Of a stretch of 64,000 nt of DNA, positions 7,677 to 61,755 are shown one piece after another. Position numbers and translations under genes: made by a program. The DNA is from Strigamia acuminata (lineage: Eukaryota). Location: positions 6,076,001 through 6,140,000 of the forward strand of contig OX442314.1 in NCBI GenBank assembly GCA_949358305.1. The letters are read 5' to 3'. Every line of letters starts with the position of its first letter. Position 1 is the stretch's first letter. The notes under the pieces were generated by a model. It did no database searches. It was not told the origin of the DNA and was given only the letters and a program-made list of their open reading frames with translations.

Positions 7677-7905
7677 AGAGTTACTGAATGAGTTTGATCA
7701 AAGTATTTGTTTGCTCCAGCAAACATGCAGAGGGACAGCCAAACTGAAAAACAAAACAACATCAGTATTTTTTTAACATTGGTTGTTGCATACTCCAGTA
7801 AAATCCATTTATTGACTTTTATGCTGTGACCACTTGGCCACCCTCGGTGACCTGCGTCACTCCACACACCGCCTAGTGGCCTCAAGGCCATCCCCCTTGC
7901 GGAGC

Positions 7906-22871: not shown

Positions 22872-23148
22872 AGAGTTACTGAATGAGTTTGATCAAAGTG
22901 TTTGTTTGCTTGAGCAAACATGCAGAGGGACGGCCAACTGACAAACAAAAGATCATTTTTTTTTAACATTGGTTGGTTCATACGCCAGTAAAATCCATTT
23001 ATTGAGCTTTATGCTGTGATCGCTTGGCTACCCTCGGTGACCTGCACCACTACACACACCGCCTAGCGGCCCCAAGGCCGTCCCTCTTGCAGAGTTGACT
23101 GGCTTAGCTGGGGAGGAGGGAGCTGAGTGATGTAGTGAGAGAGAGACG

Positions 23149-34333: not shown

Positions 34334-34378
34334 TTAGTGCATTGCTCGTTGCGAGGAAATAAAACCATGTCTTGGCCT

Positions 34379-35310
34379 CTAATCTGGGCGGTCGGGTCGA
34401 TCGTCTCGGATTTGCTGGAGCCAAATCTTAATTTCCTCGGTCGAGTAACCGTCCGGCTGCAGATAATCGAAAACTTCGTCATGAGCGGTCCGCCTCACCT
34501 CCTCGTAATACGCCATATGGATTTCGTGTTTTTCTTCTTCCGTTTCGGCGTCGCGCCATTGCTCGTACACTTCCCATCCCCGTTGGTCGTCTGGAAAGGC
34601 GGCTCGTATTAGTGGATTCGGGATTGGCGCCGGCGGATCCATATTTCTCGAAATTACCGCCCGTAAAGCTGCTTGGTATTGGCGCGGCATGTAGTGGATC
34701 AACGTTTGCTGGCTCGACCAGTAGCGGCTGATCGCACGAGATAATAAAAGGCGAATTTTCCATGGTTCAAAGTCGACCGATTCTTCGAGCGCCTGTCGGA
34801 ACAGTATGGGGATGACTTCACGCCATAAGCTGCCTGCGGAAACTCTTTTCGGGTCGATTTGCCCCCACGTAGTGCGATATCCGTCCTAAATATTAGAATA
34901 TTAATAAATATATTAGGATCGTTGGTTAATTTGTCATATTTTTTTAGAGATTCTTTCGTCTAACGCAAGATGGCGTCATGGTCGGCCATGTGCTTTTCGA
35001 CCACGTGTCTTGAAGTTACTTTTTCTTTCGGCATTTGATTAATTTTGACAATTTGTCACTTAAAGTTAAATTCTTTCTTCGTTCGTGGTCAGTCCACGAA
35101 CTTATTTCGCATTTTTAATTATCGATAATTGAATTTTCCCTATTTTTTTTTTTTACTTACGTCGGGTTGGGCATCGGGTTCATTGGGTTCGTCCCAATTT
35201 CCCTCTTCGTTGTTTACGACTATTTGTAACAAATCTACTTGATCTTCATCGTCATCCTCGGAAACGTTGTTTAGGGCCCGTTCAATTTCTTTCTTCCAAT
35301 CGTTTCTCAT
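34379..35310 (-). CDS. Gypsy accessory spliced ORF, 2 exons, 218 aa, unknown function
   Basis: Exon 1 35310-35161 (ATG, 50 codons, acidic MRNDWKKEIE...), donor GTAAGT; acceptor TTTAG, exon 2 34885-34379 in frame (DGYRTTWGQIDP...IHYMPRQY...). Confidence 0.65.
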
Positions 35311-35531
35311 TTTTTCGGAAATTAATTTGATAATTTGATTTCACGGCTGCCTCGAGGTGATCGTCGCTTAGCCGGAGATGACAGTGATAAGTGTGGGTCG
35401 GGTTAGAGGTTAACTATTAGTCTCATGTCATCTTTGATTGGTTTGGCCAATTAAGACGCATTGTGGGACGTAACAGGTGTCCCCCCTGTGGTTGTTTTTA
35501 TCGATTGTTCGAGACAATGGCTGGAGTTGCT

Positions 35532-38500: not shown

Positions 38501-39611
38501 GTCTATAATCGATGCAGAGGCGCGGTTCGGAGCCTGGTCGCATGACGAGGACAATCCTCATTCCATACTCTCCGATGGCGTGCGACACGATGCCTTTTTC
38601 GAGCAACTCATTGCACATTGTTCTTACGATGTGTCTCTTCTGGGGATTCATAGTCTTAAAAGGCACTCGTACCGGTTTGCCCGTAACCAATTCGATCTCG
38701 TGCATTACGTAACTTGTCTTCCCTGGATCCTTATTTAAGTTCTTCGAGTGCTTCTTGAGCATTTCCTCGAGGAGTTTCGTTTGTTCTTCTCCAAGATTGG
38801 CGTCTACTGCCAGATTATGTATTAAATTCTCCTCCTGGAGGATAGTATTAAATGATTTAAAATTATAGTCTTGGATGAACTTTTTAATTTCGCCTCCTCC
38901 CCATTCCTCGTCGTCCTTAGCTTTGTCTAGGAGTTCCGAAGGTATTATGGGTAGTCGTGGGTCCTCGTGGTTGTCGATGTAATTCCACGAACGTGTGACT
39001 GGGTTGGGCTGGATGTTCATCCGTTCCATCAAATCCATTCCTATCAGCAGGATTGTGTCTCGGGTTGGTAACACGATGAAGAAATGCTTAATCGTGCCTC
39101 CTTCCCATACGAAATCGGTTGATAACGTCCCCACTGCTCTAACTTCTCCCGCTGCCGTAAGAACTCGAATATTCTCGTTCATTCCCCGTAATTTTTTCTG
39201 TATTTTTTCTTCGAGTGATTCGAATAAGTCGGTGGAGATAAACGACTGATCCGCTCCCGAGTCGAGTAGTCCCATTAACACCTTTTTGCCGAAAGAGACC
39301 GGTATTTTAGCCAGTACGCTCTTCGCTTCTGTTGATAGGTTGCAACGAAGTATTCGCTTTTTAAGAGGATTGGCCCCTTGGTCAAGCGGTAAAGTCATGA
39401 AAGCGTTGGCTATGCCGTCTTCGTCTCTAATTTCGAATTTCCGTTTTTTGGTTGGAGTTGTGACTTCCTCGTTGGCAGCTTCCTCGAAAAATTCCAACAA
39501 TTTTTTCATTTCTTTAATTTGTTTTTCCACTAGTGTAAGGTCCATCATTTTTGAAGTTATCGCGAGCGGATGTGGAATTATTTTTGTTCCGCCCGCGAGT
39601 TCCAGTTTTTT
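35532..39611 (-). CDS. pol: Gypsy Pol (PR-RT-RH-IN), -1 frame relative to gag
   Basis: LLDSGA, YLDD, LHTDAS/ELECLAVVW, HHCC zinc finger, VDLMGP/SDNGPQF/NPVERLNR, GPY; frame open back to the slippery site at 39611. Confidence 0.97.
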   Translation of the reverse strand, partial: KKLELAGGTKIIPHPLAITSKMMDLTLVEKQIKEMKKLLEFFEEAANEEVTTPTKKRKFEIRDEDGIANAFMTLPLDQGANPLKKRILRCNLSTEAKSVLAKIPVSFGKKVLMGLLDSGADQSFISTDLFESLEEKIQKKLRGMNENIRVLTAAGEVRAVGTLSTDFVWEGGTIKHFFIVLPTRDTILLIGMDLMERMNIQPNPVTRSWNYIDNHEDPRLPIIPSELLDKAKDDEEWGGGEIKKFIQDYNFKSFNTILQEENLIHNLAVDANLGEEQTKLLEEMLKKHSKNLNKDPGKTSYVMHEIELVTGKPVRVPFKTMNPQKRHIVRTMCNELLEKGIVSHAIGEYGMRIVLVMRPGSEPRLCIDYRPLNAITVIDPIQMPSIEAILRELAPFNWVTTMDLSKGYWQVELREEDKEKTAFWAPQGRLMFNVMPFGLVNAPATFQKLIEKVLGDALHKYAWAYLDDIVIVSQTFTDHLMHVNDVMERLTKAGLNIHPGKSKFCRKELAFLGYTVGTGGLSIDPKKTQAISQFPAPEDVKGVQRFMGMVNFFNRMLPNLADVAAPITDLLRNDKDFEWTDHCETSFNKIKQMLIDVKRIPLPDLNREFTLHTDASRIGLGAALLQRHDIDGVELEVPTMFISRKLQAAEKNYNATELECLAVVWAIRKFRPYLEFTKFNVQTDHEALKWLMALKEPSGRMARWQLELMACDLIIEYRPGKFNVVADALSRAPASDPEDETDCGEDDSRLFYCPNPVRKWEFKKLNELPKEKLESGDQNYYNYWLRAYQSVKDAHPEYELTIEPRISDKYVRAFVAHVSKGTNSKPPTRDELIAAQMTDDFCKTYRDFITDKKFPDKNFDEIQREEFEREASTYLIEDGLLLKHHPNFRDDLTETGTSMKVVIPRSLLTRFLWMVHGHPLAGHSGVARTIYRANQLYFWPKMTRDIVRFIHHCPRCQACKPRTPKNYERISLGPFAPFDCWSVDLMGPKPTSSNKNKYILVIMDVATGWPELFPMERPTKQKIIRCLYEVALHFGFPRKLISDNGPQFASNLYKDFCKKFDIETSYTSTYNPRANPVERLNRDIKYALAIFTDVHSSWDEYLREIAFSIRTTISRNRKFSPAFLNFARELRVPWDPRIPEEILEIDPEKPHIYVDRLEQIISATYQHMMSHIFDMRDRISIAGKDRPFCNFKVNDLVWKDTHIQSSADKGIHAGLADKRDGPYVILEAHGGNAFKLKRLADNVNFRSIHARELTPYLPEFPQEAWTEYQTKPAQNPIIRDMFLDEQTGPTNLVQDELHETADAPDEISEREEIVEESPKKGKQSNKKKTTGIPKPDKIYGMRRHKPNPFIKDGKLVGKQ
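39560..39611 (-). promoter_or_regulatory. -1 ribosomal frameshift signal (A AAA AAC plus downstream stem/pseudoknot)
   Basis: AAAAAAC at 39611-39605 in gag frame; TCGCGGGCGGA/TCCGCTCGCGA stem plus TGGAA/TTCCA complementarity. Confidence 0.8.
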
Positions 39612-42457
39612 GACATACTGTCGAATTTGGCGGTGAGTTCCTTCAAGACTTTTTCTTGCTCCTTAGCGAGCAATCTCACTAGCTCTTCTCTCTCTGCGGC
39701 CTTGTCGTCGGCTTTTTTCTTTGCTAATTTCGGGCAGGTCTGACGCCAGTGGCCGTCCTCGTTGCAGAAATTACAAGGGCTTTTCTTCTTTCCCTCCCGC
39801 ACAAAAGGTTTTTTGGGGTAGTCTTTCTTCTCAGAAGTCGCCTCTGTTTTCGGGTTGTGATGCTCCGATTTTCTGGACTTCATCTGAGGTCGGTAGCTGG
39901 GTGCCAGTTCCTTCCCCATGTTTGCATGTACAACCTCGTTGATACCTTCGTCGACCTCATCGCTTTCCGAGAATTGCTCAGAATCTTCGCTTATTTCGTC
40001 TTCCGACTTTTCCTCGGCGGCGTTAGTTTGCGTGCGATAGGCCTTATTTGGAGGTGGTAACGGGTTGGAAGCTTGTTGGTTTTTCTTTGAGGGGAGTGGC
40101 TCTATACTTCCGTTTAGATAATTTCGCGATTGGAGCAGCTTAGTGGAGTCTATGCTGCGTTCCTGTATTCGTTGCTGTCGAGCCACTCCTAGAGCTCGTT
40201 CTTCTTTTGTCAGATTTTCGTTATACCGAGCATTTACTTCGGTGTGTTTTTTCTCGACGAAAGCGAGGATGGCTTTGAAATTATCCCCTTTAGGAGCGTT
40301 CATTTCTCGTAGGACTTTGGTTGCGGTTTCGTTTAGTCCTTGTTCGAAGAGAGCTTTCTGAGCGTGTTGGTCAAATGGTTTGTCCATTTCACGGAACAGG
40401 CTGTCGGCTCGTTGTACGTACTCCCTCAGAGTTTCCCCGGGAGCTTGCTTCATAGAGCTTACTCTTTTCTGGATTTCTTGGCTCGTCTCGCCATATTGAT
40501 TGTGGAACTTTATGACGAAGTCTTCCCAGTTTCGGGGTTGGACATCAGCGTACCAGTTTCGGGCCCGGTTTATCAGCATTTCTGGTATTCCGCGTGCAAC
40601 CATTTCGTCGGGTTCCGCTCCTAGACGATTAATCGTCAGGGCGACTTCGTCCAAAAACAAGTTGCCAGCGTTCCAGGATCCGTCGAACTTAATTAGTCTC
40701 AGGGTCGTCCACTTGATGTTGTTATCCTTGCGAGAATACAGCCATCGGTCCGCGGAGTAACGTTTCAACAATCCTTCGCTTCGATCGTCTTCCTCGGTCT
40801 CTTGGCCACGGCTCTGTTGAAGTTTTTGGTCCATGGCTTGAAGGAGTTCGTCTTTCATCGTCCGTAGTTGGTTGCTTAGCGAGTCAGTCTCACTAGGCAG
40901 CGGTGATGATCGTGGATTGTCGGAAGGGAGGCTTGGGTAATGCGTACCGTTGCCTGTCAGTCCGAATTGATTGTGTTGGAACGACGTTTGTCCTGATGAT
41001 CCCACGGCGTTCGGATTATTCGTGAGGTCTTGCGCTACCGTTGAGTTATCGGGGTTCGATTTTTCCGGAGCGGAGGTTCGGCTCAACTTTGTTCCGGGCG
41101 GTATCAGATCGTCCAGTCGGGTCCCCGTGAGGCCTTCGTTCGTTTTTTTGATAAAAACATAGGAGTCTCTTCCAGCATATGCTTCGGCGGCGTGCTTCTT
41201 TTCGAGGTGATTTTTAACTGCGTTAATCTCCTCGAGCGTCGGCATGGCCAGTTTATTTCGACCTGCTTCGTTGCGTATCTGGTTCTTCTGATTTATACAT
41301 CTGATTAGTTCGGCGTTAGGGTCGCCTGAGTTGGTATTACTGGTTTGGCCAGTTTTCATTGCAAATGAGTTTTTTATTGCCCATGATTGCGCGCCCTGAT
41401 TATTCCTCCTATCCTGTATAAACGCCTCGTATAGTTCTCCTTTGACTTCGTCCGATTCGTTCAAGATGCTATCTAGTCCGTTGACTCGGATACTGCCGTG
41501 AGATGCTTGAGAGTCGATACTTTCACTGTCTGACGTTGCTTCGCCGCCGGTCTCGGACTGCTGTCGATCCGCTCCGACCCGACGTCGTTTCTCCCCGCGT
41601 CTGGCCGTGTTTTCTGCCGATCTTTTTTCAGTCCTCTGATTTACCAGGTCGATTACCCGGCTTAGTTCTGCGTAAGGATCCTTGTCCTGATCGATCTCGA
41701 TGCCGTGTGCGCAGGCCACTCGAGTTACTTCTATTGCTTTGGCTACCAGCTCCTTAGCTGTGTGAGACCGTTCTGGGGAGCTCTGTACGGAGTTTGGCTC
41801 CGAATGCTGGCTTAACCCGTTGCTTGGTGGCCGGATCTGGTAGTCCTTTGCCATTTCTCGTTCGATTATTCTTTGCTTCGCGAGCAATTCTCGAGCCAGC
41901 TCGCGCTCCATTGCCATTTGCTTTTCTTGGCTTTCACGGGCGGCCGCCATCTGCTTAGCTTGACGTTCTTGTGCCAAGTTCTGTTCCATGGCAGCTAATT
42001 TCTCGCGATGCTCTCTGGCTAAATCTTCCATCAATTCGTTTTTCTTCTTTTCCAATGCGGCTGTTCTCGCTTGGTCGGCTCGGGTAGCCTCGTTGATAAT
42101 TGCGGCGCCTGTGCTTGCCGCTTTATTTAGAAGAGTCATTAGATCCATTTCACTGGGATCCTTTTCGACTGGTCTGGGGCTTTTCAATCCGAATCGAGGG
42201 TTTTCGAACGATTTATTTAGTCTGTTTTCTTCGTGAGAGCTTCCTGATCCTTCGAATTCGCCTCCCGTGAACGGAAGTTGTCTTGCAAGGGGAAGGCCTT
42301 CACTTGATGATTCCGTTGAAACTTCAGTCGAGTTAGTCTCGACTTCTGGTTCCACGTGGTTCGCTTCTTCCGCTTTTTGGCGTTCGATTTCTTCGGCTTC
42401 CTTTCTCTCTTTTTCGTCGTTACGCCTTTTTCTGTCTTCCGCGGTAGTTTTCGTCAT
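39578..42457 (-). CDS. gag: Gypsy Gag, 959 aa, CCHC zinc knuckle
   Basis: Follows the PBS; capsid-like region (KFDGS...MKQAPGETLREYV); CNFCNEDGHWRQTC; long N-terminal coiled-coil/disordered part. Confidence 0.93.
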   Translation of the reverse strand: MTKTTAEDRKRRNDEKERKEAEEIERQKAEEANHVEPEVETNSTEVSTESSSEGLPLARQLPFTGGEFEGSGSSHEENRLNKSFENPRFGLKSPRPVEKDPSEMDLMTLLNKAASTGAAIINEATRADQARTAALEKKKNELMEDLAREHREKLAAMEQNLAQERQAKQMAAARESQEKQMAMERELARELLAKQRIIEREMAKDYQIRPPSNGLSQHSEPNSVQSSPERSHTAKELVAKAIEVTRVACAHGIEIDQDKDPYAELSRVIDLVNQRTEKRSAENTARRGEKRRRVGADRQQSETGGEATSDSESIDSQASHGSIRVNGLDSILNESDEVKGELYEAFIQDRRNNQGAQSWAIKNSFAMKTGQTSNTNSGDPNAELIRCINQKNQIRNEAGRNKLAMPTLEEINAVKNHLEKKHAAEAYAGRDSYVFIKKTNEGLTGTRLDDLIPPGTKLSRTSAPEKSNPDNSTVAQDLTNNPNAVGSSGQTSFQHNQFGLTGNGTHYPSLPSDNPRSSPLPSETDSLSNQLRTMKDELLQAMDQKLQQSRGQETEEDDRSEGLLKRYSADRWLYSRKDNNIKWTTLRLIKFDGSWNAGNLFLDEVALTINRLGAEPDEMVARGIPEMLINRARNWYADVQPRNWEDFVIKFHNQYGETSQEIQKRVSSMKQAPGETLREYVQRADSLFREMDKPFDQHAQKALFEQGLNETATKVLREMNAPKGDNFKAILAFVEKKHTEVNARYNENLTKEERALGVARQQRIQERSIDSTKLLQSRNYLNGSIEPLPSKKNQQASNPLPPPNKAYRTQTNAAEEKSEDEISEDSEQFSESDEVDEGINEVVHANMGKELAPSYRPQMKSRKSEHHNPKTEATSEKKDYPKKPFVREGKKKSPCNFCNEDGHWRQTCPKLAKKKADDKAAEREELVRLLAKEQEKVLKELTAKFDSMSKNWNSRAEQK

Positions 42458-42531
42458 TTTCTTGCGATATAATGATCGGTCGAAAGATCCCGGTTATTAT
42501 TTAAAGTTTTGTCGTAAGGTTAGCAAATTCT

Positions 42532-42549
42532 ATCCCGGACGGGCCCCCA
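42532..42549 (-). promoter_or_regulatory. Primer-binding site, tRNA-Pro
   Basis: TGGGGGCCCGTCCGGGAT, one mismatch to the canonical tRNA-Pro PBS TGGGGGCTCGTCCGGGAT, 2 nt from the 5' LTR. Confidence 0.9.
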
Positions 42550-45500
42550 CGTGTCGTGATTCGACTTTGTGGTTAAAGATAATAAATAATACACTCGGGA
42601 ATACAATATACTTCAAATACTGCTTTATTAAAACACGCTTACTAATACAAATATAAGTTAAGATGTTTCCTGTGGTGGTCCTCGGATTCGGCTGCGAATA
42701 CGAGTTGCCGCTAAACAATGGCGGATCCAATTGTTTAGTCCTACGCGTGGTCTGTGTTTGTTGTCTAGGGTATTTCCACGTGTTATTATGAACACGCGAG
42801 AATTCGCTTTCTCGTGCGAATTAAACGAATATCGTTCGGATATTTATTCTAGCGTAGTTTGGCTACGCTAAATAAATGTGGCTGTTGTACAGTTGAATGG
42901 TCAGCGGGCACCGGTCCTCGATCAATCCGTGAAACGGCCTGAAAGGTGAGGTAAATGGTGCTCTTGCTGAAATGTGGTAACTGTAGTGTCGTTTCCGGTC
43001 AGGCATTGGTGTTATATATTAACCGGAAATGACGTCATATGCAAATCCTTCTGATTATGCAGGTTCGCAGAAACACGAGACTAGTCAGTCTAATCGGTAT
43101 TTCTAGCGCGCTCTAGTGGCGAGTATTAATAACATGATAATCGTCACTAATTACTTCTTCAGGTGATGCCGAATCACCACAATCTTAGCGGATGAAACAT
43201 CGCTCACAACTAGCTAGGATGACTTTAGATCGTCTTAATACTGGAGCCAATCGATTCCCCGGCATAAAAGTAAACTATTCGATTTTTTTTATCTCTTCGA
43301 ATTCGACAGACGAGAATCGGAAAGCAGTCGCTCAAAGCGACGCGATTTGGCAAACAGGGACAGAAACACGACGAGGAGGCATCAGACCTTCGAACCAACA
43401 ACGGTGTGACGGTGACGACCACAACTCCCATTTAACAATGGTACCGGGAAGAGATCGCAATAAATAAACAGTGAATACAATACGAGATAAATACAAGACA
43501 GTTTATTGTTGGTAAACAATAATATCAAGGCTAAATTATACATAGGACTAATGCCGACATTTGGCAAGTTAAATCAGCTATTAAACTATACAAAGAATTG
43601 GCCAACTGGCCCTAGAATAATATCACTACGGGTCTGGAATATGGGAGCGGTTTCCCCATCGCTCGACCTGATTATAGATGTCATCTTAAGCCGGATGGCT
43701 GTGTCCTGGAGTCCGATACGGCTTCGCTGGTTTCCTTGGTTCGCTGTGTAAACTATCGCACGTCGATAAATCGAATGATCTGAGCATTGCGGTTGACTTT
43801 GTCTGCACCGCCACAACTTTGGGAGGATATTGGTGTAAGTAAATGTATTCATTTACTTATCAATATTCCACTTATGAATTATATTTAATTCATATCGTTG
43901 TGAATTCTTATTTAGATATTTTTGTGGATAAGTTGTCATCAACTTATCAGTTACATTTGCGTCTTTGATGTAATCGTGATCGTAATTAAGTCTTCTGACT
44001 TGGTTAATCAACTTGTCGCCAAGTTAATATTTAGCTGTTATAATAAAATGAAGATTAGGCTTCCCGTCGCAACACACAATTGCCGTCGAAAGAATATACG
44101 CCTTGCCATGCAGAACGGTATCAAGCGTCCCCGGCGTCGCAGCACGGTCGTCCATCGAGTGGTTGACGGTACCACGTACACAGGGGTCGATAGCTCGCGG
44201 CTCCGCACAGCAGTTTTATCTCTCGCGGTACTAATAATAGACCGACTGCTTTGGCATCGAATACCATGAGAATCAGCTTGCCAAACACTTGGTGCTACTC
44301 GTGGTTACTGTAAAACAGACTGCTTTGGCACCATCAGGTGAAGGAACCGATTCTCAACAATACCGATGCTACTCGTGGTAACGGAATACGTTCATACCGA
44401 AAAAGACAACTTGGTCCTGTCCGGAGGATACTGAATTGCACAACGGCGGGTTCTCCTTCGGCGTCGCAACCGTAGACTGTAACATTTATGCAACATAATA
44501 ATCCCAGCACTTCGACTTCAATTGCCGGCGGTGGCATGATTCTGTAGAATCATGCAACGGTTCTTTGCGAATAAATCAACAAAGAACCAAAAGGTTTTTT
44601 TACGTGAACAACGAATCATACTTCTTAAGTAACAATACCAAACAGAAATAATCAAACAGAGCTCCAGAATGGCCGGTTGTTTGGGTTTATATAACCTGAC
44701 TGGATTAAGGATTAATCCAGTTATCCAATTGGAACATGGGTTCCACGAATCCCTCCAATCCCGTATCACCGGAAGTGGATACGGAGGAACAATGTGCTAA
44801 TTCTCACCACAACCGGAACTGGATACCCAGGACCGGAAATGGATCCACCAATCAGATCTATTGGTTGATCGATTGATCACCAAATGTCCTGTCCCGCAGA
44901 AAATGGAAGTTACATTGTATTTAACATCACAAGACATTAATATATCTTTATATTAATGTTCACAAAGCTTCGTTTCATTCTAGTAAATATAGTTTTATAT
45001 TTATTTACATGTTTTATATTCATATCTTGAATTTGCCGCTAAATCGTAATCGCGCCATCTTGTGGCAACATTGCGCATTGACAAATGCGGTTTTAGCAGA
45101 CGACTCTTCGTGATTCGGCCGGAATCCTTTGATATCAAGTAGGAATGAGTGTTTATTCTTAATAAACGAACATCTTTGTATTTGAAACATCATAAATAAC
45201 TTTATTCCAGACATTTATCAGTTTTACACAGAATATCTTCGAGATATCATGATAATGGCGCAACAGCGCTTCTTTCTAAGAAAATAGGCATTTATAGCCA
45301 TTGTAAACCGTCACACATCCCCCTTAATAACACAATTATATAAAATTTTATAGAGTTTTCGTTATTCTCCTAATTAGCATAAATGCTATTTTCGGACTTG
45401 ATGTATCTTGGAGATACCGTGACTTCCAATTTCGAATTTGAGCTTACATAAACTAACTTGAATTATCTAAGTTCTGATTTTCTGCCGAAATAATCTTTTC

Positions 45501-47391: not shown

Positions 47392-50300
47392 AAAAAAATT
47401 CAAAATCTGACGATTTTAATTCTTTAATTTATAAAGAAGACGAATATAATACACTTTTCAACAAGAAACACTTCTAAACTTTACTTTTGACAAAATAAAA
47501 TTAAACTTCGCGTTTGTTTGACACGTGTTAGCTTTTGCAGGTTACACGGCACACAAAATTCGAATCGTGACTGAAATCGGGACGGCGTGGTCAAGATGAC
47601 TCTGGAACACGTCTTCTGGTCTGGTCTGGATGCGAATGATCAGTATCTGATCTGGTCCTCCTTTAATAGCAGGGGGCTGGGGATCCCTAGATCTCCCAAC
47701 TTCTGATTGGCGGATGTTAGTGTCGGCCAATGGTATAAAGGACGTTACATCTATTTAGTAGTTCTCTACTAAGTCCGTTCCCTTCGAGATTCAATTTTAC
47801 CGATAAAATAAAATTCCTTCGGGAAGACATTCGTAAAATATTGTATTTTTCAAATGAAAATAAAATAAACTTACTTCAATCTTCTTGAACTTTGGGATTT
47901 TTACCAATCCAAATAATTAAATAACTTTTCTTCAAAAAATATTTTTTTTCTTTTAATTATTCCGTTAGTGTGTGATATCGTTACAACCACAACTTTAATA
48001 AAGTTTTCTCAAACTCTCAATTTTTCTTATTCTTATTCAATTATCGTTCAAATAATCATTCCTTTGTAATTGAAATCTATTTTCGATTCCCAACATTGTG
48101 TATTCATTTCCAATAGGAAGAATAATTTGACCAAGTCTTTACTTTTTCGGGTTTAAATTCCATTTTTCGAGTGTGAAAAAATAAATTTTCACCATCCATC
48201 TCCCCCTTTTTTAACAAATTTTTTTTAACAAATAAAAATTCGTTAAAATTCTTTAAATTTGTTTTGCGAGAAAAATTATCTAATTCTCTAATCTTCCAAA
48301 AGAAAATATTCGAAATTTTACTTTAAACGATAAAGTTATTGGTACAAATGTGTACTTGTTTTTCGGGAGAAAACTATTCGACAATCCTTTAGACTTTTGG
48401 GTAAAAATTATTCATCAAATCTTTCTTTTTTGATGACAATTGCTTTGATTTTTCGAAAGAAAATATCTAGCTAAATTCCACTTTTCCTGAGCGGACAATT
48501 GTTTTCACAATTAGTTATTCCTTTGCGATATTTACGAAGGACGTGTCTTTGATTATTCGTTTTAATAATTTTCGTCCCCCTTATCTCTAATAACGAGATG
48601 TTTTTGCAGAGATCTTTTATCTTTTGAATGAAAGAATATTTAAATCTCAATTGTCGTAAATACCTTCATCTGCTGCAGCATTTCCTCAATTTGAACTTTT
48701 CAAATGAAAAGACAAATCTGGAGAACTTTCACTGTCAAACTTCTATTCCTATCGCGCCAAAATTCGTAATTCACTGTTTTGGAATTCCGTATAACACGTG
48801 ACACAATAACAGTATCGATGTCACAATTAAGCAGTTTACTACTCGGTCCGCGCGAGGACATGTAAATTACTTTTTTCCGATAAAAATAATTTTTCTTTGA
48901 AAAATATTTGAAATTGATTTTTCACAACTACTTTTGAATGAAATAAAATGAAGTTATTCCAACTTTTCGTTAATTGCTCACACATAACATTCCCTTTACT
49001 GTGGGATTTGCATCGAAATTCCATTTTTAAAGAACCTTTCTTTTACTTATCGCAAATAAAACATATTCAATCGTTTTTCTGATTAAACTTTAACACGTAA
49101 ATTACGAACGAAATATATGATGACATTCCATTAACCTTTAGGAAAAATTGACTAAATTCTTAATTTTTAGAGAAAAATAATGTATCTAGAATCTTTCCTT
49201 TTCCGAATAAAATCTATGTTCAAAATAGAAGATAAATCTTGTGCAATTCTTAGTTTTTTCGAATGGAAAAATACAACTTTTCATCAGCGGTGATTTATTT
49301 GATTTTTCCGAAAGAAAAATAATTACTTTGAAACTTATTTTCTTCGTTTAAATCAGCTATCTGATTTTAAAGCTTCAATCCAATTAAAAAATATTCGCTC
49401 CGTAAATATTTCATGTGGCAAAGTTCATAGCCACAAATGGATTTGTTATTCCGGTTTTAAGAAATCATGTGGGAAAATGTCCGATTAGATTACTAAAAAT
49501 ATTCGTTGTTTTTCAAACAGCTAAATTTCATTTAGAAATTCTCAAAATTTGGGAGACCCAAATATCGTTGGAAACTTAAAACACTGTTAAATTTCCGAAA
49601 GGAAAGATTGAATGAAATCCTTTTACTTTTCCGAGGGAAAGCGTTTATCGTGATTCGTAACTTTCAATGTAAAAAATACTATTCTACGTGGTCGGCAACT
49701 TCATTCGCCGCCATTTTATATTTTCTTAATTTCCATTGTCCCGAAGGAAAAAATGTACTTTTTGTGAAAATAGTTAATTCCTTCAAATAAAGGTAATATT
49801 CATTTCGATTTGCAAATTTTTTCTGCGAAATGGAGTGTGTTGTTTTTCTCCAACAACTAAATTATCTTTGGTACCGATGGCAGTGGAAAAATTAGTTCGC
49901 GACACTTAAATAAATCTCTACGAACCTTCTGTAACATTTCTCCGCTGTCTTTTATCTGTTGTCCGCCATAATTTCCAAGCATTCGTTCGCACCTTGCGTT
50001 GAAGGTTTGAGTAGCTTCCCTGCTGCGTTTGATACGGAGATCGACGCGTATTGCTATGGCGCGTGGTCGCTGGCTATCGGTGTCGACGTACAGTTACAAG
50101 AAACTTAATTTCTTGTAAATATTTCCAAATAGTTGCGGTGTTTTCTTCGTTTTAACTTTTCAGGTGGAAAGATAAATTCGTAAGAAGTCCGCCTTCTAAA
50201 CTTGTATGTTTTTAGCTTTTCGAAATAAAACAAACTTCGAAAAAAATATCTGTATTCTTATTTCACTCGAAACTTTTTTTTGATTTCTTATTTAAAATAC

Positions 50301-50745
50301 TTCGTATTCCTTAAATTGTCGAACGAAAATAGTAAAGAGAGTTCACTAAACGTTTCCATTTCGTCAGTTTAACTTTTCACATGAAAATATAAACTGAAAA
50401 TCTATTTGTCTGTTTTAACTAAAATTTTTTTTGTTAATATCGGATTCAAGATTCGCTTTTGCAATTCGATCGAATTAATTTGCAACCTATTTCAGTGATC
50501 GTGTGATAGGTCTATAACTTCCGAAATTCCTAGTTAACACTAGAACGGCCGGAATTTCGGCCTACCTAGAAAGGCCAAAACCGGTCATAATGACCGGTTA
50601 TGTTCAAATGATGTTTTCATCAATTTTTAGCCAATGAAACAATTCCAAATTGTTTCCTCGGTCCTGCTACATTGTTTCCTCTGCCCTGCCACGTGTTTAT
50701 TCGTTCATTATTCGCTTTTTCTCCGTTGTAAACCAGCACTAGAAG

Positions 50746-51286
50746 ATGGATTGCGCTGCAGTAGCCGAATTAAAGGCTGAATTTGAAACAAATAGGTAAG
50801 GGATTCCTATTTTTTATCATATAATATATTTCTAGCATAGAATAAAAACATTAATAATGCTTTTTGTTGTAGCTATTCATTGCCACAAGGGTTGATTCAC
50901 CTTGTTATGCACCGACCAAACAAAACCGATGGGGATGAAAAAATGCGCTCTAAAATATATAGAGAAATCTTTTTCATTCTGAAGGTAATTTAATAATGAC
51001 TCAATAAATATTATTATATTTTGTTACATTACATTTTTTATACTACTTTTACAGAACCAAAGGCTAATTCCAGTGAAAGGAGGTGTCCAGTATCCCCCAG
51101 CTCTGACAAAATTTATTCGGAAAATTTACCCCAGAAACATAAAGCAGCATGATGAGAAATATAATAAGGTAAGATTATAATTTGTTTGAAAATATGATTT
51201 ATTTATTTCAATTTTTTTAGGCAACACTAGTTTCATTTGCTGCATTGGAAAAGGCAAAATGGCCTACCTGCAAGTGTGATAAATGA
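50746..51286 (+). CDS. Second gene inside piggyBac: 4 exons, 113 aa, unknown function
   Basis: Exons 50746-50795, 50873-50984, 51055-51168, 51221-51286 with consensus donors (GTAAGG, GTAATT, GTAAGA) and pyrimidine-rich YAG acceptors; 342 nt open ATG to TGA; AATAAA at 51303. Confidence 0.78.
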
Positions 51287-51319
51287 ATTGTATACTAGAA
51301 TGAATAAATTTTTGTCTTA

Positions 51320-52934
51320 CTAAATGCAGTTTTTACATATTATGTTTACTGATGATGTGCACACACCACACACAAATTTGTTACATGAATGGCAGGTGCT
51401 TTTCGTTTTGTTTTCACATTTACCGGCCTGGCACGTATGTCTTTTACCACTTTTTTCTCTAGGTGTACTGGCCGCTCTAGTCAAAGTGGTTGGGTTAGGT
51501 GATTCCCATTTACATAATTCTTTGACTAATTTCAAAATAAAATCCCGACGTGAAATTTTATCTTTAGTTACTGACTTGAAAACAATATAAGCATTTATGC
51601 CTGCTAAGTCTAATATATTATAAAACACGTGAACAGGCCATCTGCGGGAAGCAGCCTTTACACTATAGAGCCGTGCCATCTGATCGAGAGTATCTACACC
51701 ACATTTTGTCGAATTGTAGTATAGAATTGTTTCAGGTTTTTTCTTTTCACCGTCATCAAAACTGATTGTCGGGTGCATTGTGCTCAAAATACATACATTT
51801 TTAGAACGTTTGGCTCTGTAAATCGTAAGAGTGCAAGCAGAATCAGGATTTTGAAAGAAGCAAGTAGAAAAAACTGGACCACTAAAATCATTTGCCGCAT
51901 CTGGAACTTCTCGCCGAATTCGATTCATGGTCCCGACTAAGCTCGTATTTTCCTTTTGCAACGCATTTGCTAAAGAAACTGACGTAAAAAAATTGTCCGT
52001 AGTTATATTTCGTCCTTTTTTCAAATATGGTTTCACCAGTGTCATAACAACATGTTCTCCCAACGATTTATCAGCAGGTCGGGAATCGTCTTTCCCCAAG
52101 TACGGGAAACCATTCACTAAATATTTAGTTTCTAAATCCGCAGCTAGCCAAAACTTCAAGCCAAATTTATCCGGTTTGTTGCTCATGTATTGTGTGAATC
52201 CACACCTAGCTTTAGTCGGAAATAACTGCTCGTCAACGGTTATATTTACCCCTGGGTTATAATGGCTTTGACAATTTTCTATAAATGGCTTCCAAATTTG
52301 TGATGCAAGTGCAAACTTATCGTCCTTCAAACGGGCACTTCGATGAGACTTTTCATCAAAACGCAAATATTTCGAAATTTCTTTGAATCGGTGTCGTGCC
52401 ATAGTGTCTCGAAAAATTGGCAATCCCCAATCACTAGACCAATAACTGTCGACAGATAAATTTGAATTATAAGCACCACGTGCATAAAGTAAACCGATAA
52501 ATTTCTCCAATTCTTCCAACGGCAAATCCCACGTATTGTTATTCAACCGTCGTCGAGCCTCAACAATTGTACAGTTCCGAATAAGGCGCAGCATTTTTTC
52601 GTCGATGAATAATGAAAATGCAGTATTTGCACTTTCGTTCGAAATCTTCCGCATGGCAGCTGGGCTTGGACCCACTCTACTATCTGTGAAGACATTGTGT
52701 CGAGCCCTTCTACCAACACCAGACAAAGATGGATCTACAATTTCCCAAACAGTGCCATCTCTAGCGATAATACGGTTTGGATCTGGATCCTCGGGGAGTA
52801 ATTCAGTGTCGTCGTCACTTTCATTTGGCTGCTCTTGCCCTCGTCCAAGTCCACGCCCTCGTCCACCCCCTCGTCCACGCTTTCGTCTAGCCCCTCGTTC
52901 CTCCCCTCGTCCTCGACCTCGTTCTTGCCCGCGC

Positions 52935-52965
<31 letters not shown>

Positions 52966-53215
52966 CAGACGCTGGCTCCGCTGTTTCAGAAATTTCACTG
53001 CAATCACTGCATGAATCTGAAGAACTATCTTCACTCAGGTTATCATTTACAATATCGAAATCGGAATCGGAATCGGAATCGGAATTGGAATCGGAATCAG
53101 TCTCGGAATTTTCAAACAAAGTTTGCTTTGACAGCCGCGATCGTTTTGAAGCAGCCATGATAAGAAATGGCTTCAACTTACTAAATTTGTGCATATATAC
53201 CCGTGTATAATACAA
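51320..53215 (-). CDS. piggyBac transposase (PGBD-like), 631 aa
   Basis: Catalytic D-D-D in TVDEQL, TTDNFFTS, GVDTLDQ; KPDKFGLK; RRWP; C-terminal Cys-rich domain. Confidence 0.97.
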
Positions 53216-53876
53216 TCGTTATATACACGTATTGGTTTGCGCATTGTGCGTGATTGGTGCACATTTTGTGAACGTATGGTTCACGTTATTTCCACCGGTC
53301 ATTTTGAACGGTTTTGGCCGTTCTAGGTCAATTGTCATTTTTTTCATTTTTTTTTTTGTAAAATACAATGTTTGATGATTTATGATGTAAAGCATCATAA
53401 ATCAGCTAAAGTGAAGAAACAACACAGTTGTAAACCCATTGGGTTTACTGCTACAGCTGTTGTAAACAGCTGAACCGGTCAAAATGACCGGTTTGGCCGT
53501 TCTAGTGTTAAAGGACAGTTTTGGTGTTTCTCAAGAAAATAAACATGGTTTGAAACTGGTCTGTTTTTTAACTAAATCTTTTAGTTAAATATTTATCTCA
53601 AAATTCACTTTTACAATTCTATCGAATTTAATTGCAACCTAATCTCGGTGGGACCTCCACGTGTGAGATTAGGTGGTAGTCTTTGAAATCCCTAAAATCT
53701 TCAAACGAAAATAATGAAGGAAAATCTACTACGTATTTCTATTTCATCAGTTTAACTTCTTCACATGGAAATATAAACTGAGAATTTAATCTGTCTATTT
53801 TTAACTTAAATCTTTTAGTTAAATATTTATCTCCAATATTCACTGTTGCAATTCAATCGAATTTAATTGCAACCTA

Positions 53877-53894
53877 ATCTCGGTGGGACCTCCA
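53877..53894 (-). promoter_or_regulatory. Primer-binding site, tRNA-Gln (second perfect copy at 53642-53659)
   Basis: TGGAGGTCCCACCGAGAT, 2 nt from the 5' LTR. Confidence 0.9.
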
Positions 53895-56871
53895 CGTGTG
53901 ACGGTGACGACCACAACTCCCATTTAACAATGGTACCGGGAAGAGATCGCAATAAATAAACAGTGAATACAATACGAGATAAATACAAGACAGTTTATTG
54001 TTGGTAAACAATAATATCAAGGCTAAATTATACATAGGACTAATGCCGACATTTGGCAAGTTAAATCAGCTATTAAACTATACAAAGAATTGGCCAACTG
54101 GCCCTAGAATAATATCACTACGGGTCTGGAATATGGGAGCGGTTTCCCCATCGCTCGACCTGATTATAGATGTCATCTTAAGCCGGATGGCTGTGTCCTG
54201 GAGTCCGATACGGCTTCGCTGGTTTCCTTGGTTCGCTGTGTAAACTATCGCACGTCGATAAATCGAATGATCTGAGCATTGCGGTTGACTTTGTCTGCAC
54301 CGCCACAACTTTGGGAGGATATTGGTGTAAGTAAATGTATTCATTTACTTATCAATATTCCACTTATGAATTATATTTAATTCATATCGTTGTGAATTCT
54401 TATTTAGATATTTTTGTGGATAAGTTGTCATCAACTTATCAGTTACATTTGCGTCTTTGATGTAATCGTGATCGTAATTAAGTCTTCTGACTTGGTTAAT
54501 CAACTTGTCGCCAAGTTAATATTTAGCTGTTATAATAAAATGAAGATTAGGCTTCCCGTCGCAACACACAATTGCCGTCGAAAGAATATACGCCTTGCCA
54601 TGCAGAACGGTATCAAGCGTCCCCGGCGTCGCAGCACGGTCGTCCATCGAGTGGTTGACGGTACCACGTACACAGGGGTCGATAGCTCGCGGCTCCGCAC
54701 AGCAGTTTTATCTCTCGCGGTACTAATAATAGACCGACTGCTTTGGCATCGAATACCATGAGAATCAGCTTGCCAAACACTTGGTGCTACTCGTGGTTAC
54801 TGTAAAACAGACTGCTTTGGCACCATCAGGTGAAGGAACCGATTCTCAACAATACCGATGCTACTCGTGGTAACGGAATACGTTCATACCGAAAAAGACA
54901 ACTTGGTCCTGTCCGGAGGATACTGAATTGCACAACGGCGGGTTCTCCTTCGGCGTCGCAACCGTAGACTGTAACATTTATGCAACATAATAATCCCAGC
55001 ACTTCGACTTCAATTGCCGGCGGTGGCATGATTCTGTAGAATCATGCAACGGTTCTTTGCGAATAAATCAACAAAGAACCAAAAGGTTTTTTTACGTGAA
55101 CAACGAATCATACTTCTTAAGTAACAATACCAAACAGAAATAATCAAACAGAGCTCCAGAATGGCCGGTTGTTTGGGTTTATATAACCTGACTGGATTAA
55201 GGATTAATCCAGTTATCCAATTGGAACATGGGTTCCACGAATCCCTCCAATCCCGTATCACCGGAAGTGGATACGGAGGAACAATGTGCTAATTCTCACC
55301 ACAACCGGAACTGGATACCCAGGACCGGAAATGGATCCACCAATCAGATCTATTGGTTGATCGATTGATCACCAAATGTCCTGTCCCGCAGAAAATGGAA
55401 GTTACATTGTATTTAACATCACAAGACATTAATATATCTTTATATTAATGTTCACAAAGCTTCGTTTCATTCTAGTAAATATAGTTTTATATTTATTTAC
55501 ATGTTTTATATTCATATCTTGAATTTGCCGCTAAATCGTAATCGCGCCATCTTGTGGCAACATTGCGCATTGACAAATGCGGTTTTAGCAGACGACTCTT
55601 CGTGATTCGGCCGGAATCCTTTGATATCAAGTAGGAATGAGTGTTTATTCTTAATAAACGAACATCTTTGTATTTGAAACATCATAAATAACTTTATTCC
55701 AGACATTTATCAGTTTTACACAGAATATCTTCGAGATATCATGATAATGGCGCAACAGCGCTTCTTTCTAAGAAAATAGGCATTTATAGCCATTGTAAAC
55801 CGTCACAACGGTAAGCGATTTCTTGGCACAGAATGAACTTATTGATGTTCATATAATGTTATGAATTAATTTTTATTTTGCCGTATGAAACTACATTGCA
55901 CTTTTTAATTTTCTTCTAACAACAAACCATTGCTTAATAATTAGAATGGATCAAACACCAATTTCAGTTTTTGTGCATTCAAAACAATGTAAGACGTCTG
56001 TTACAAAACACGTGGCTTTAACCCACTTATAAATACGATTTATAAACTACTTGGGGAGCTGGATGGGGTGCACACAAAAATAGCACTGGGCGCTGATAGA
56101 CATGGAACCAGCCCTGAATTTTACAATAATGATTCTTGCTCGTGCATGTTAAACTGACAATGCGTGTTGATTAAAAATCGTGACAAGAAATAAGGTAGGG
56201 ATGACGTCGAGAAAAAAATTCGAAAGCAAAAATAGATGAAAATAAATGAGGATTAATGGGCCTGGATATAAATTTATAAGTTTTATTTTATTTTTCTATT
56301 ATGTGAGTACATTATAAATTGTCTTATTAATGTGAAATATGGTAGATAAGCTTACACCAGTAGGTAATAACACTAAAACATTTTAGAAACTGCACTAGGA
56401 AAGTGATTTGCCACATGTGAAAAGTGTGTTTTGATTAGTACTTAACTTGCTTTTATTGTGTAAATTTTCTGCAGTGTACATTCTAATTTCGTCATAACAA
56501 CAATTTTTGCTCAATAATTTGAAATGAGTTACATCAATAGGTAAAAGTACAAACTTACACAAGTTACCCAACTAAATGTAAAATTGGGAACAGAAATAGT
56601 TTTTGTTTTTTGTGCATTCATACAAATATATGACGTCTGAAACATGTGTTTTTAATTCATTTTTAAATACGATGTATATAGTTCGTAGGGCACTGGGCGC
56701 TGATAGACCTGGAGACAGACTCTGACTTTGCCAATAATCATTTTTGCTGGTGCATGTTCAACTAACAATTCGTCATGATTAAATATACATTTAGTTTTTA
56801 ATCTTATTTTCTTTCTTATATGTGCTTAGCTAATATTAGTAATATTTTATTTACACTCATTAAAGTGTAAA

Positions 56872-59800
56872 TCAACAGCCCACATTTTGTTTCTGATACC
56901 AATTATAAGTTTTTAAAATCCAATCGTACAAAGAGAGAAGTGACATTCCCAAGCCCAGTCCTAGAATGCTACCGAAATCGCTTAAGAATTGAGATATTGG
57001 ATATGCCCGTTTCTCTTCTACAATCTCAACAGAGCTATCAGCAAATTGGAATATTATTATTAGGCCTATATTTTTTGGCAATTTATTCTCCCGAAAAATA
57101 AATTTGTAAAAAATATTTTTGCAAGGTTGTTTACATTTGCATTGTTTTTGATTCGAGTCAAGGTTGCTTAAATACGTGAAATGAGCGGTAGTTACGGCAC
57201 TTGTAGTGTTGCAAACTGGCAAATTAGCTTTTCCCATGTATGGTAATCTGAAACAAAGAAGAGATTGGTTAAAGATGCAAATAGTTGCAGTTTATCTGCT
57301 GAAAAGGGTTCGGTGTTTTTCGAACAGATTCAATCTGGTGATGCCGCAAATGAATCTGTAATTGCTAACATGTCAAAATAAGCTTGCAAGTTTGTGTGTG
57401 GTTAATGCTAGTGCAATGATCCATTGCCAACCGAAAACTGACCGCGGATTAGCTGATCAGTCGACGTTTAAAACGGCGAAAATAAAAATAGATGTGATAA
57501 AATTGGAGCTGATGCATGAAAAGAAATGTGAACTATACCTGCACTTAACACCTCGAAATAGATTGTTATGCCAGCAAGCACTTTTACACTTGAGATAAGC
57601 ACTTTTGTTCTCTTCACATGGATCGCGCTTTGTATTTCTTCGTACGATCTATTTCGTAAAAGGAATCTTAGTATCAGCATTTATAAATTTATTTCATTTT
57701 CTACCTGAACGTCTTGAAGTACTACATCGTTGACACATGCATAGTTTACGGTCAATGGTGTTAAAATGTTAACTTCCTCTTTCTGACTATTTATGATTAG
57801 CTGCGTGTTATTATAATCCAAAGTATTTATATTAATAATTAATACTGTATGTGCACAGAAAATATTTTTTATATTTTTATATTGACAATTAGGAATACGT
57901 GTGTATCCGAACCAAACACGAACTATTTTTATGACTTTGTTTGCTTCTTTGTGCTTGTATAAATAGACTTTCTCGTTATCTTATTAAAGGTCAAGTGCAC
58001 TGAGTGGGTTTTATTTTTTTCTGATAGAGCCTAATATAAAAATATTTTTCATGTTAAAAAAAATAAAATTTGGGTCTTTATCACTGTTTAACACTAGAAC
58101 TGCCAGAGGGGTCATTTTGACCCGTCTGGCAGTTTCAAACAGCTGTAGCAATAAACCCAATGGCTTTACAATGCTGTTAATTTTTGACTTTTACTAATTT
58201 ATGATGGTTTACATCATAAATCAGAGAACTGCCGGAACGGGTCAAAATGACCCGTTTTAATAACTTGAACAATGCGTACACAAAACTTGCACAAAACGTG
58301 CTTAAATCGTGCAAAATACATAAACAATACGTGTATACAACGTTTTGGCATCAAATTGATTCAATAACAGGCGAAACATGTGAAGAAAATCGCAAAACAA
58401 AAATTGATAGTTTTTATAAAACCTGATAAAATTTAATTTTCGTTTTTTATCTTACCAGGTTTTATAAAAACCATCAATTTTTGTTTTGCTATTTTCTTCA
58501 CATGTTTCGCCTGTTATTGAATCATTTTGATGGCAAAACGTTGTATACACGTATTGTTTATGTATTTTGCACGATTCGTGCACATTTTGTGCACGTTATG
58601 TGTACGCATTGTTCAAGTTATTAAAACGGGTCATTTTGACCCGTTTCGGCAGTTCTAGGTAGTGGGATATTCCGGCAGTTCTAGTGTTAATAACAATTGA
58701 AAAAGTTGACTTTTTCAATGTGATGCATCATGGTTGTTGGCTGGATGTCCGACGTCATCAGTTCTGTGGTGGTTGGTGGTGGTGTTGTTGCGCATGCGCA
58801 TCAAACTGCGCATGCGCAAAAGACAGTTTTAAACTCCCACACTCAAGGTCAGCCATTATGAATCCACCCTAGGCTCGGAACTAGTTCCAGGTCAACTGAA
58901 CTAGAGAACTGACAACGTCATACTCCCATGATTCTTTGCCTTGTCAACACCCGATATTGCGATTGTTATTAAACAATGATAAAGGCCCAAATTTTATTTT
59001 TTTTTAACATAAAAACTAATTTTTTATTAGGCTCTATCAGAAAAAAAATAAAACCCACTCAGTGCACTTGACCTTTAAAGAATGCTGCTTAAAAAGACAC
59101 CGACACTGTCAATTTAACGCATTCCATTTTGGTTGCAAAATTTTAGGTGATTTTGAGTAAAAATATTTTTTTTACACACCTTTAGCTGCGGATCACAAGC
59201 TTCTGCAGGAGTTAAATATCTACTAAAATCAATGAAAAGCTTAGTGGTTTTTGTGCCTGTTTTATCTGTAAGACAGCGAAAAGGTCAGAATTAATTTTCA
59301 AATTCGTCTGCCGGAAAACAATTTTTAGTTAAATAATTCCGAAAAAAAGAAACATTGAAAAACCCCAGAATTCAAAAGTAGACTTTGAATACAACCATTA
59401 ATTAACTAAAATCAGAAATTAATTTTGTAAATTACCATTCCTTATTTGTGAACAATTGCCAAATGGAAGTGAAATAAAATTAGTTGATATTACCTGTAAA
59501 CATAAAACTTTTATTGTTTGGGTTTGGTTTGAGAAATGTGACTTAAGTTACATCATTCCCAATATGGCTAAAAGTTAACGCTTGGTCGATACTAAGTGAT
59601 TCCCAGATGTTTAGTAATGACAAATTGCTGTTGAACAATTGCCAGGGTGATATATTGCTACAGGTTTTATTGGGTTGTTTCAGTAAGTGTAATCGGGCTT
59701 TGAGCATTTCTTCATTTCTTTTTTCACCACAAACTGTGACAGAAGGAAATTCGGTGTAGCGTCGTTGACTCATTCGAATGATTCTCATGCCAGGTTCATC

Positions 59801-61533
59801 CAGATAGTAATTGACACGAATGTGCAGGCAATACAAAGTAAATCCTGCAACAACTAACACGAATATTAACTTCCACTTTTCTAAGACTGTGTGTATTTTG
59901 GTTTGCTCTTCAGATTCATCGACTTTTTTTTTGCACATTTCATACAGACGTCTCATCTTATTGACGGATCTTTTTCTGTGAGTGTATGAAGCAACGTAAT
60001 ATAAATACCAAATGATGTCAGGTAATGAGATTACGGATAGTCCAAGAAACAGGCCCAGATTGCCTCCTAAATCCGATAGTAAGGCAATAACGTCATATGA
60101 GTACCGTTCTTCATAAACAGTGACTTTTTCATCAGTTATTGCTAATGATACAGTCATCGTTTTATTATCATTAGCTATGCCTAAATCAGTATATGGTGTA
60201 AAAGTTATGTGTTGACAAGGAAGTTGACATCCGCAATGAGCAATTGGTTCTGCAAATCTAACTAAGTTCTGAATATGAGAATACATCTGATATGTTTCAT
60301 TTCCTAATTTGCAAAGTGGCAAATCTGACTTCATGAACTGAAATCTTGTAATCAGTATATTTAATTAGCTGATTAATTGTGATACCAAACAAGAAGCATT
60401 TTCACCACATGAGTTTACCTGCAAGTTAGCTTTTTAATTTGGTTAAGTAAGCAATTCCGATAGCATTCTCTGTATTCGTCTTCGTTAGAGCATGAACTGA
60501 TCGGTGAATTTTGCAATATGAACTACAATTGAATAAATTAAAAGCTGTTGCCCAGGAATTTAAGTCTGGGCAAAACTTTACTTTGTTACACCTAAAATTT
60601 ATTTTAATTGTTGAATCAGGATACATCACAGATAAAAGATAGGGATTTCCAACATTATTGAATGTCAGATAAAACTAAGGGCAAAGAAGAAAATTAATGC
60701 AGCAATTGCTATTGTAATTTAATTAAGTTACCCAATAATTAGTCCTATTGCATATCAAGTCGTAATTTTTTTTAAAATTTACTGTCAGTACCTTTCCAAC
60801 AAATGATTTGGTTGAAGCTTCAGCTGTGTCAATGAATAATATTAGTGTAACAATGTAGGTAGTGATAAATTTTTGTTTGTAGTTACCAAATCGAAATGTT
60901 GAGCATATTCCGAATGCACTGTTAGTTTCCGTCTGAACAACAGTAGTATTTGAATATCCCTATGCAAATATAGTTTAAATTGTGATTTTTAACTGAATTT
61001 CTCTATTGTTTTTTTTTAATTTGAATTTTTACTTTCATTTTTACATTGTCAATGTCATCAGTATTGTTAGTTGCTTTCCAAAGTGTATCCATATCGTAAG
61101 TTGGGTTTTCAATTCTCATTAGTGCATCAAGCATGTAACGGCATGAAATGGTTTCTGATTTTCGTTTATTTGCTGTAGGAGTTTCTTCCCAAAGCCTATT
61201 CATTTTCTTTGTATTTGAACTACACACCATTAAGTCTGGTAAAGTAACATTTTCTGATCTACTCATTACGTCGACAGCTGTAGGATAACTGAAGTAATGC
61301 ATTATTCTGTCGTATGTCTGATATGTGAGCATGCACATGCAAAATGTGAATAAAAGTAGCCAAAGGATGTGTTGTTTGCTTCTCCAACGTTTCCTACTGT
61401 TTACGAAATCTTCCAACCCAATTATATCGCAGTTGGGTTTGTTGGCATCATCCTTCATTAATCGGTGAATTGTCAGACGCAGTTTTTTTTTCATCAGTCC
61501 ATTTTTCCTTATCAAATAATTATTCTTCATCAT
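56872..61533 (-). CDS. Double-repeat DEG/ENaC channel, copy 3; same 11-exon structure
   Basis: Exons homologous to copy 1 are open with conserved GT-AG sites; the 59543-60334 exon again links TM2 (GLFLGLS) to a second TM1 + FPSVTVC; MITEs sit in intron 8. Confidence 0.88.
57988..59074. mobile_element. Kolobok-like MITE in ENaC intron
   Basis: TTAA TSD with AGG...CCT termini; ~90-bp TIR AGGTCAAGTGCACTGAGTGGG...; empty site at ~5185-5197 in copy 1. Confidence 0.85.
58092..58686. mobile_element. piggyBac-family MITE (595 bp) with internal ~200-bp foldback
   Basis: TTAA TSD; CACTAGAACTGCC termini and GGTCAAAATGACC palindromes related to the element at 50538-53507; inverted arms span 58225-58656. 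Confidence 0.9.
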
Positions 61534-61755
61534 TTTGGTTCTTTCCAAATACAAGCTCGCAGCTACCGAATGAGTTAGATCAAAAATGTTTGTTTGCTTG
61601 AGGGAAAGTGCAGAAGGACGACCAAACTGAAAAAAAAACATCTTGATTTATTTTTATATTTTTTGTTTTCATGTAAAGGTAAAGTAGAATTTCCAATGTC
61701 AGAGATGCTACGTTTGTATGTTTTCTGGAAGTTCTTGGATAACATGAAATAACTA

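Follow-up and report, generated by a model that had tools for sequence, protein, structure and literature searches.

The piggyBac element and its transposase

The window, by which we mean the whole 64,000-nt stretch of DNA analyzed here, carries on its minus strand a 2,970-bp piggyBac element with TTAA on both flanks, and within the 3′ arm of this element lies a second, predicted gene that is convergent with the transposase gene (Table 1). The TTAA duplication, the short terminal repeats that start with C, and the DDD transposase of family PF13843 with its Cys-rich tail place the element in the piggyBac superfamily. Its termini begin with CAC, and the first six letters recur in many related loci. 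A start of CAC in place of the 5′-RR..YY-3′ termini of Kolobok, together with a PF13843 transposase, sets the element outside the Kolobok superfamily. The transposase frame has a second ATG 12 codons in, and its product retains the catalytic residues D321, D400, and D501 as well as the C-terminal cysteine-rich domain; near the N-terminus (52840-52975), an acidic Asp-Ser run is followed by a long Arg-Gly repeat. The element agrees with canonical piggyBacs as they are described in the portion of Bouallegue et al. 2017 (PMC5381638) available to us, in that it shares the TTAA target, the short terminal repeats of the form C[C/A/T][C/A/T], the subterminal repeats, and the DDD transposase with a cysteine-rich tail, and its size is near the 2.8-kb mean given there. 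It differs from them in having a 782-nt 3′ arm that contains a second gene.

Relatives of the transposase are plentiful (E <= 1e-50 for 912 of 7993 candidates), and the named ones, which belong to fish, insects, and a spider, are about 50% identical to it. A FastTree phylogeny of 51 transposases, which drew on 30 rows left by a length filter from 31 of 32 chosen loci and on 20 of 120 database proteins, set the enzyme from the window on its own long branch without a close sister, and the tree therefore gives no date for the capture of the second gene. Viral contigs contained neither a transposase relative nor a copy of the element termini, and the three distant piggyBac loci found in prokaryote genomes all lack the second gene. 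Contigs filed under bacterial metagenome-assembled genomes (L086-L088) encode a piggyBac transposase with 33-34% identity beside frames whose products, judged by eye, resemble two kinases (one for nucleosides, one for proteins) and a protein with a signal peptide; these are likely mis-binned Teratorn-like elements of fish.

Table 1. Coordinates of the piggyBac element and of its predicted second gene, numbered from the first letter of the window
Feature	Position	Strand	Basis or remark
Left TTAA target-site duplication	50534..50537		contigs diverge into differing flanks before 50534
Right TTAA target-site duplication	53508..53511		sequence
piggyBac element, 2,970 bp	50538..53507	-	13-bp perfect terminal inverted repeats
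Internal inverted repeat, element 3′ end	50564..50598		partner 53294-53328, 35 nt, 91%
piggyBac transposase, 624-aa uninterrupted frame	51320..53194	-	PF13843, E 9e-71
Second gene exon 1 (predicted)	50746..50795	+	ATG; codons 1-17
Predicted intron 1	50796..50872	+	77 nt, GC 0.22
Second gene exon 2 (predicted)	50873..50984	+	to codon 54; R42, Y46 (= P2X7 R546, Y550)
Predicted intron 2	50985..51054	+	70 nt, GC 0.16; splits KolX-like motif
Second gene exon 3 (predicted)	51055..51168	+	codons 55-92; P68, I75, R76, Y79, P80 (= P2X7 P570, I577, R578, F/Y581, P582)
Predicted intron 3	51169..51220	+	52 nt, GC 0.13; minus-strand AATAAA 51207-51202 inside
Second gene exon 4 with TGA (predicted)	51221..51286	+	sequence
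AATAAA, predicted polyadenylation signal of second gene	51303..51308	+	sequence

Other mobile and duplicated sequences share the window with this element. A related piggyBac family is represented by a 595-bp nonautonomous element at 58092-58686, which is flanked by TTAA, has ends 75-82% like those of the 2,970-bp piggyBac, and contains neither a transposase nor the second gene. It is enclosed in an insertion at 57984-59078 with 110-bp inverted ends (93%), and a paralogous segment near 5190 lacks this whole insertion. Pieces of an amiloride-sensitive channel gene (PF00858) lie in a segmental duplicate (2975-7775 and 55805-61658, about 87% identity), part of which recurs near 22348-23094. Such channels are typical of animals, and their genes suggest that the host is an animal. 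Two 1,912-bp copies at 43404-45315 and 53896-55807 are 100% identical, likely another very young mobile element, and an inverted relative of them (about 65%) is found at 87-2125. At 31373-43181, a Ty3/gypsy-type retrotransposon has 630-bp terminal repeats that are 99.7% alike and frames of 959 and 1338 aa, to which are added frames of 108 and 517 aa, the latter without a Pfam match. Pieces of a Ty1/copia-type pol (RVT_2 and SH3_retrovirus) are spread over several frames at 18882-22871.

A predicted spliced gene in the 3′ arm

By prediction, splicing joins four plus-strand exons of the second gene into 342 nt, which encode 113 amino acids followed by TGA. When these exons were joined, the frame reproduced letter for letter the peptide of a preliminary description of this DNA, which had claimed a four-exon gene running from ATG(50746) to TGA(51286). 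Its further claims about the layout were borne out as well: an AATAAA follows the gene, 33 nt separate the TGA from the transposase stop at 51320, and most of the 3′ arm (541 nt out of 782) is taken up by the gene. All three predicted introns have GT..AG boundaries and T-rich acceptors, and their GC content of 13-22% compares with 38-41% for the exons. None of their lengths is divisible by three, and unspliced read-through would stop after 17 codons. Two candidate host introns in the channel gene of the window are similar, with lengths of 73 and 63 nt and GC contents of 0.18 and 0.27. On the minus strand, the first AATAAA past the transposase stop comes 113 nt on, inside intron 3.

The exon-intron structure exceeds what chance produces. 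A splice-aware search of the 782-nt arm, with a splice filter written after the gene had been seen, found only four donors and four acceptors, and the second gene was the longest product; a looser filter, applied to the real arm only, gave the same top structures. In dinucleotide shuffles of the arm, a product of 113 aa with at least three introns appeared in 0 of 1000 cases and a product of 113 aa of any kind in 1 of 1000. Native tiles of 782 nt from the window gave 113 aa with at least three introns in 0 of 316 cases and 113 aa with fewer introns in 19 of 316.

Copies in sequencing contigs and selection

Assembled contigs from two runs of one study (X1 and X2), one of which may have supplied the window itself, include sequences identical to the copy in the window along the element, and in both runs such contigs span the whole second gene. 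The left TTAA is joined to 21 different contig flanks in X1 and 25 in X2, and an element-free junction was also seen. We take the element to be likely recently mobile, with the provision that contig depth is no copy number. Diverged subfamilies and deletion derivatives are present in the same runs, and the derivatives remove most of the second gene. Two features of depth concern the surroundings and the 5′ end: the piggyBac sits in a very abundant host repeat (50200-50533 and 53512-53900), where summed contig depth is tens of times that of the element interior, and depth is likewise much higher over the 5′ end region (53300-53507), which is what a large number of miniature derivatives would produce.

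In one diverged lineage, exon 2 lacks the nucleotide at 50938, a 1-nt deletion with a depth of 442 of 1597 in X1 and 152 of 558 in X2. Substitutions were counted from 40 of 372 rows and were judged against a synonymous baseline share of 0.21, or 0.34 if transitions are taken. Among these 40 of 372 rows, the second-gene exons account for seven rows in six codons, three of which changed synonymously (p 0.11); in exon 2 of the major diverged subfamily, the synonymous share is three of four changed codons, again among 40 of 372 rows. The transposase, over the same 40 of 372 rows, shows synonymous change in six of nine codons, with a p of 0.005 that weakens under the 0.34 transition baseline. No substitution touched a splice dinucleotide among the 40 of 372 rows.

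Distribution among related piggyBacs

The preliminary description had proposed searching for the peptide by tBLASTn beside other piggyBac transposases. Such neighbors did not appear: in the best 80 of 532 related metagenome loci, whose transposase segments are 41-60% identical, tblastn with the second peptide returned no match (best E 0.21). A splice-aware search of 30 related 3′ arms, several of which are copies belonging to a single family and two of which lack a located end, yielded a spliced frame over 83 aa in none, and 20 of the 30 arms measure 436 nt or less versus 782 nt in the window's element. The comparison is with loci that include no close sister, the nearest transposase relatives being only about 50-58% identical, and with many copies that have decayed or are truncated where a contig ends. 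These data show that the second gene is not general to the piggyBac clade and do not make it unique. Since it is absent from the 80 related loci, it is likely family-specific and dispensable. Accessory genes of transposons such as Harbinger and Kol0 are recognized by conservation throughout a lineage; the window's gene differs from them in being absent from all 80 related loci and all 30 related arms that were compared. For the earlier proposal of an accessory factor, if understood as one under selection, three findings call for caution, namely the absence from the best 80 of 532 related loci, the frameshift of exon 2 in one lineage, and a synonymous excess that is not significant.

Likeness to KolX and the P2X7 ballast

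The predicted second protein is basic, with a mass of 13.1 kDa, a pI of 9.6, and 21 Lys and Arg residues. Its by-eye likeness to the P2X7 C-terminus and to the second ORF of Kolobok, proposed after the sequence of the gene had been seen, was put in numbers with 12 positions of the ballast C-terminal part (R546, A549, Y550, F/Y553, W559, I/V568, P570, C572, I577, R578, F/Y581, and P582). These positions were taken from the part of Rump et al. 2020 (PMC7016195) available to us, where I577 was read off the WRIR consensus, and in the count the two blocks of the motif could move by as many as three residues relative to each other. The second protein matches 7 of the 12 with a 2-residue insertion (residues in Table 1), and the five matches of the second block hold exact spacing. 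A score of 7 was reached by 12 of 20,000 shuffles and by 0 of 583 real 113-aa protein pieces, and no 7/12 match occurs in the 631,644 six-frame residues of 88 loci. A stricter seven-residue regular expression was found in 2 of 200,000 shuffles, but it was built on the matching positions only, and the 12-position count is for this reason the figure that we use. The by-eye likeness thus stood as far as the count is concerned and fell short at the cysteines: the unmatched positions are C572, W559, A549, F/Y553, and I/V568, and the zinc-coordinating set of seven Cys is absent from the second protein, which has Cys only at 3, 109, and 111. In the available text of Rump et al. 2020 (PMC7016195), the zinc cysteines are the fundamental feature of the ballast. 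The second protein looks like the C-terminal core of KolX, yet it is not assignable to the KolX or ballast family. Judged from the motif, it is probably kin to them. A possible BEN-domain reading was set aside because it is the ballast numbering that the Pro-to-Ile and Ile-to-aromatic-Pro spacings fit.

Searches with single exons added little to this picture. Exons 2, 3, and 4, scanned singly, had no Pfam match, the P2RX7_C family included, although these blanks are weak given that intron 2 splits the motif. PDB sequence searches with single exons gave 0 and 1 chance matches, and a search of 1.84 billion representatives with single exons gave five matches, all to low-complexity repeat peptides and none to a true homologue. 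Word searches with single exons, which are weak for such short queries, produced no candidates, and the Atlas search with single exons produced no usable match or scores under 0.85. Rfam had 0 matches. A scan of viral contigs with a degenerate KolX motif turned up five matches, and all five were rejected as frames with stops or without the upstream motif.

The preliminary description had also held that canonical piggyBacs lack a partner gene. This pairing is in fact already in print, since the available part of Kojima and Bao 2022 (PMC9587614) notes piggyBac families with KolX-C-like proteins, and its Data S6 gives two, piggyBac-2_GrCh_2p and piggyBac-14_PI_2p. By eye, about 9 of the 12 ballast positions are present in one of these two proteins and about 5 in the other, compared with 7 here. 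The one with 9 shares a V-Q-x-P run with the second protein, and the P-x6-I-R-x3-P layout is common to the second protein of piggyBac-2_GrCh and that of the window. Both published proteins have an upstream CxxC...PCxW run, which is our own reading and follows no published criterion, and a Cys two residues after the Pro; the window's protein has neither. From the Repbase suffixes, we take the host of GrCh to be a red alga and that of PI to be an oomycete. The window's piggyBac is unlike both cases in residing in an animal-type genome and in having transposase relatives in fish, insects, and a spider; its second gene has three predicted introns. The KolX of the Kol0 Kolobok is, like the window's gene, a second gene in a TTAA-targeting DNA transposon. 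The carriers differ, the one here being a piggyBac with C-starting termini and a PF13843 transposase and the carrier of KolX being a Kolobok with 5′-RR..YY-3′ termini according to the available part of PMC9587614. KolX, the P2X7 ballast, and Nanor have a zinc-coordinating cysteine domain, as described in the parts of PMC9587614 and PMC7016195 available to us, and the window's protein is without it. In the open-access literature, we came across no animal piggyBac described as having a second gene that is spliced, and no function for KolX was found in that literature.

Interpretation

The reading that we prefer, with confidence only a little better than even, is that of an intact, likely recently mobile piggyBac with a convergent gene, predicted to be spliced, for a likely cysteine-free KolX/ballast remnant that serves as a dispensable helper or regulator. 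The gene may have been picked up late by this piggyBac family, most likely from a Kolobok, with which it has the TTAA target in common. Its transcription would proceed from the 3′ end of the element toward the interior, and the host would presumably splice the transcript, with polyadenylation after 51308, right at the transposase stop. If each strand uses its nearest AATAAA, the 3′ ends of the two mRNAs would be antisense to each other over roughly 130 nt, and such an overlap could add self-damping. At the least secure step of this proposal, the basic protein might bind the DNA ends of the element or the transposase and tune how frequently the element moves. That an animal piggyBac lineage independently recruited the bare cysteine-free KolX/ballast core as a working spliced accessory gene is a more tentative proposal, which we consider possible and would rather doubt than assert.

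The same gene could instead be an idle passenger, captured once with its introns as a gene or a piece of one, whether from a Kolobok KolX, a domesticated ballast, or another host gene. Host-like introns, the restriction to one family among the related loci compared, the frameshifted lineage, and the nonsignificant synonymous excess are all consistent with this explanation, and the missing zinc-binding half would fit truncation on capture. Against it, the piece is whole, from ATG through stop to AATAAA, and sits snugly in the space that the terminal repeats and the transposase stop leave; exon 2 shows three of four codon changes to be synonymous in the main diverged subfamily (among 40 of 372 rows); and a similar cysteine-poor domain in two other piggyBac families suggests a use. 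We regard an idle passenger as unlikely, though it is the strongest of the rival accounts. A real element gene that has nothing to do with KolX, such as an orphan encoding a small helical DNA-binding or anti-silencing factor, would make the motif a coincidence. This would be in keeping with the blank profile, PDB, and homologue searches with single exons, with the failure of 5 of 12 ballast positions, the conserved Cys among them, and with a shuffle rate (6e-4) that is modest given that the motif was chosen with the sequence already in view. We nevertheless hold it to be improbable in view of the five second-block matches at exact spacing and of the earlier report of piggyBac second proteins from the very family matched here. 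That the arm encodes no protein, being a chance path through AT-rich sequence or a source of antisense RNA against the transposase message only, would agree with the failure to find a homologue and with the overlap of the predicted 3′ ends, but it is very improbable when three frame-shifting introns restore a single frame with three of the four donors and three of the four acceptors in the arm, the GC content follows the exons, and 0 of 1000 shuffles match.

What the preferred reading of a helper or regulator would add must be weighed against earlier work, since a KolX-like second protein has been published for piggyBac before, and the case is to that extent less surprising. The features new to this case are its animal-type host, its predicted introns, a convergent layout with overlap, and a motif that has lost its cysteines. 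The piggyBac transposon is in standard use for gene transfer and is regarded as carrying a single gene. If the recruitment is true, then this element, together with the Kol0 Kolobok and the two published piggyBacs, would mean that unrelated TTAA-targeting transposases repeatedly take the same small domain, and the shared domain would regulate or aim transposition. This piggyBac, intact and 3 kb long, lends itself to a transposition assay with and without its removable KolX-like gene, and such an assay would bear on the role of the domain and hence on that of the ancestor of the P2X7 ballast. If the recruitment is true, the element would offer a compact, active system in which to test what the P2X7 ballast fold originally did.
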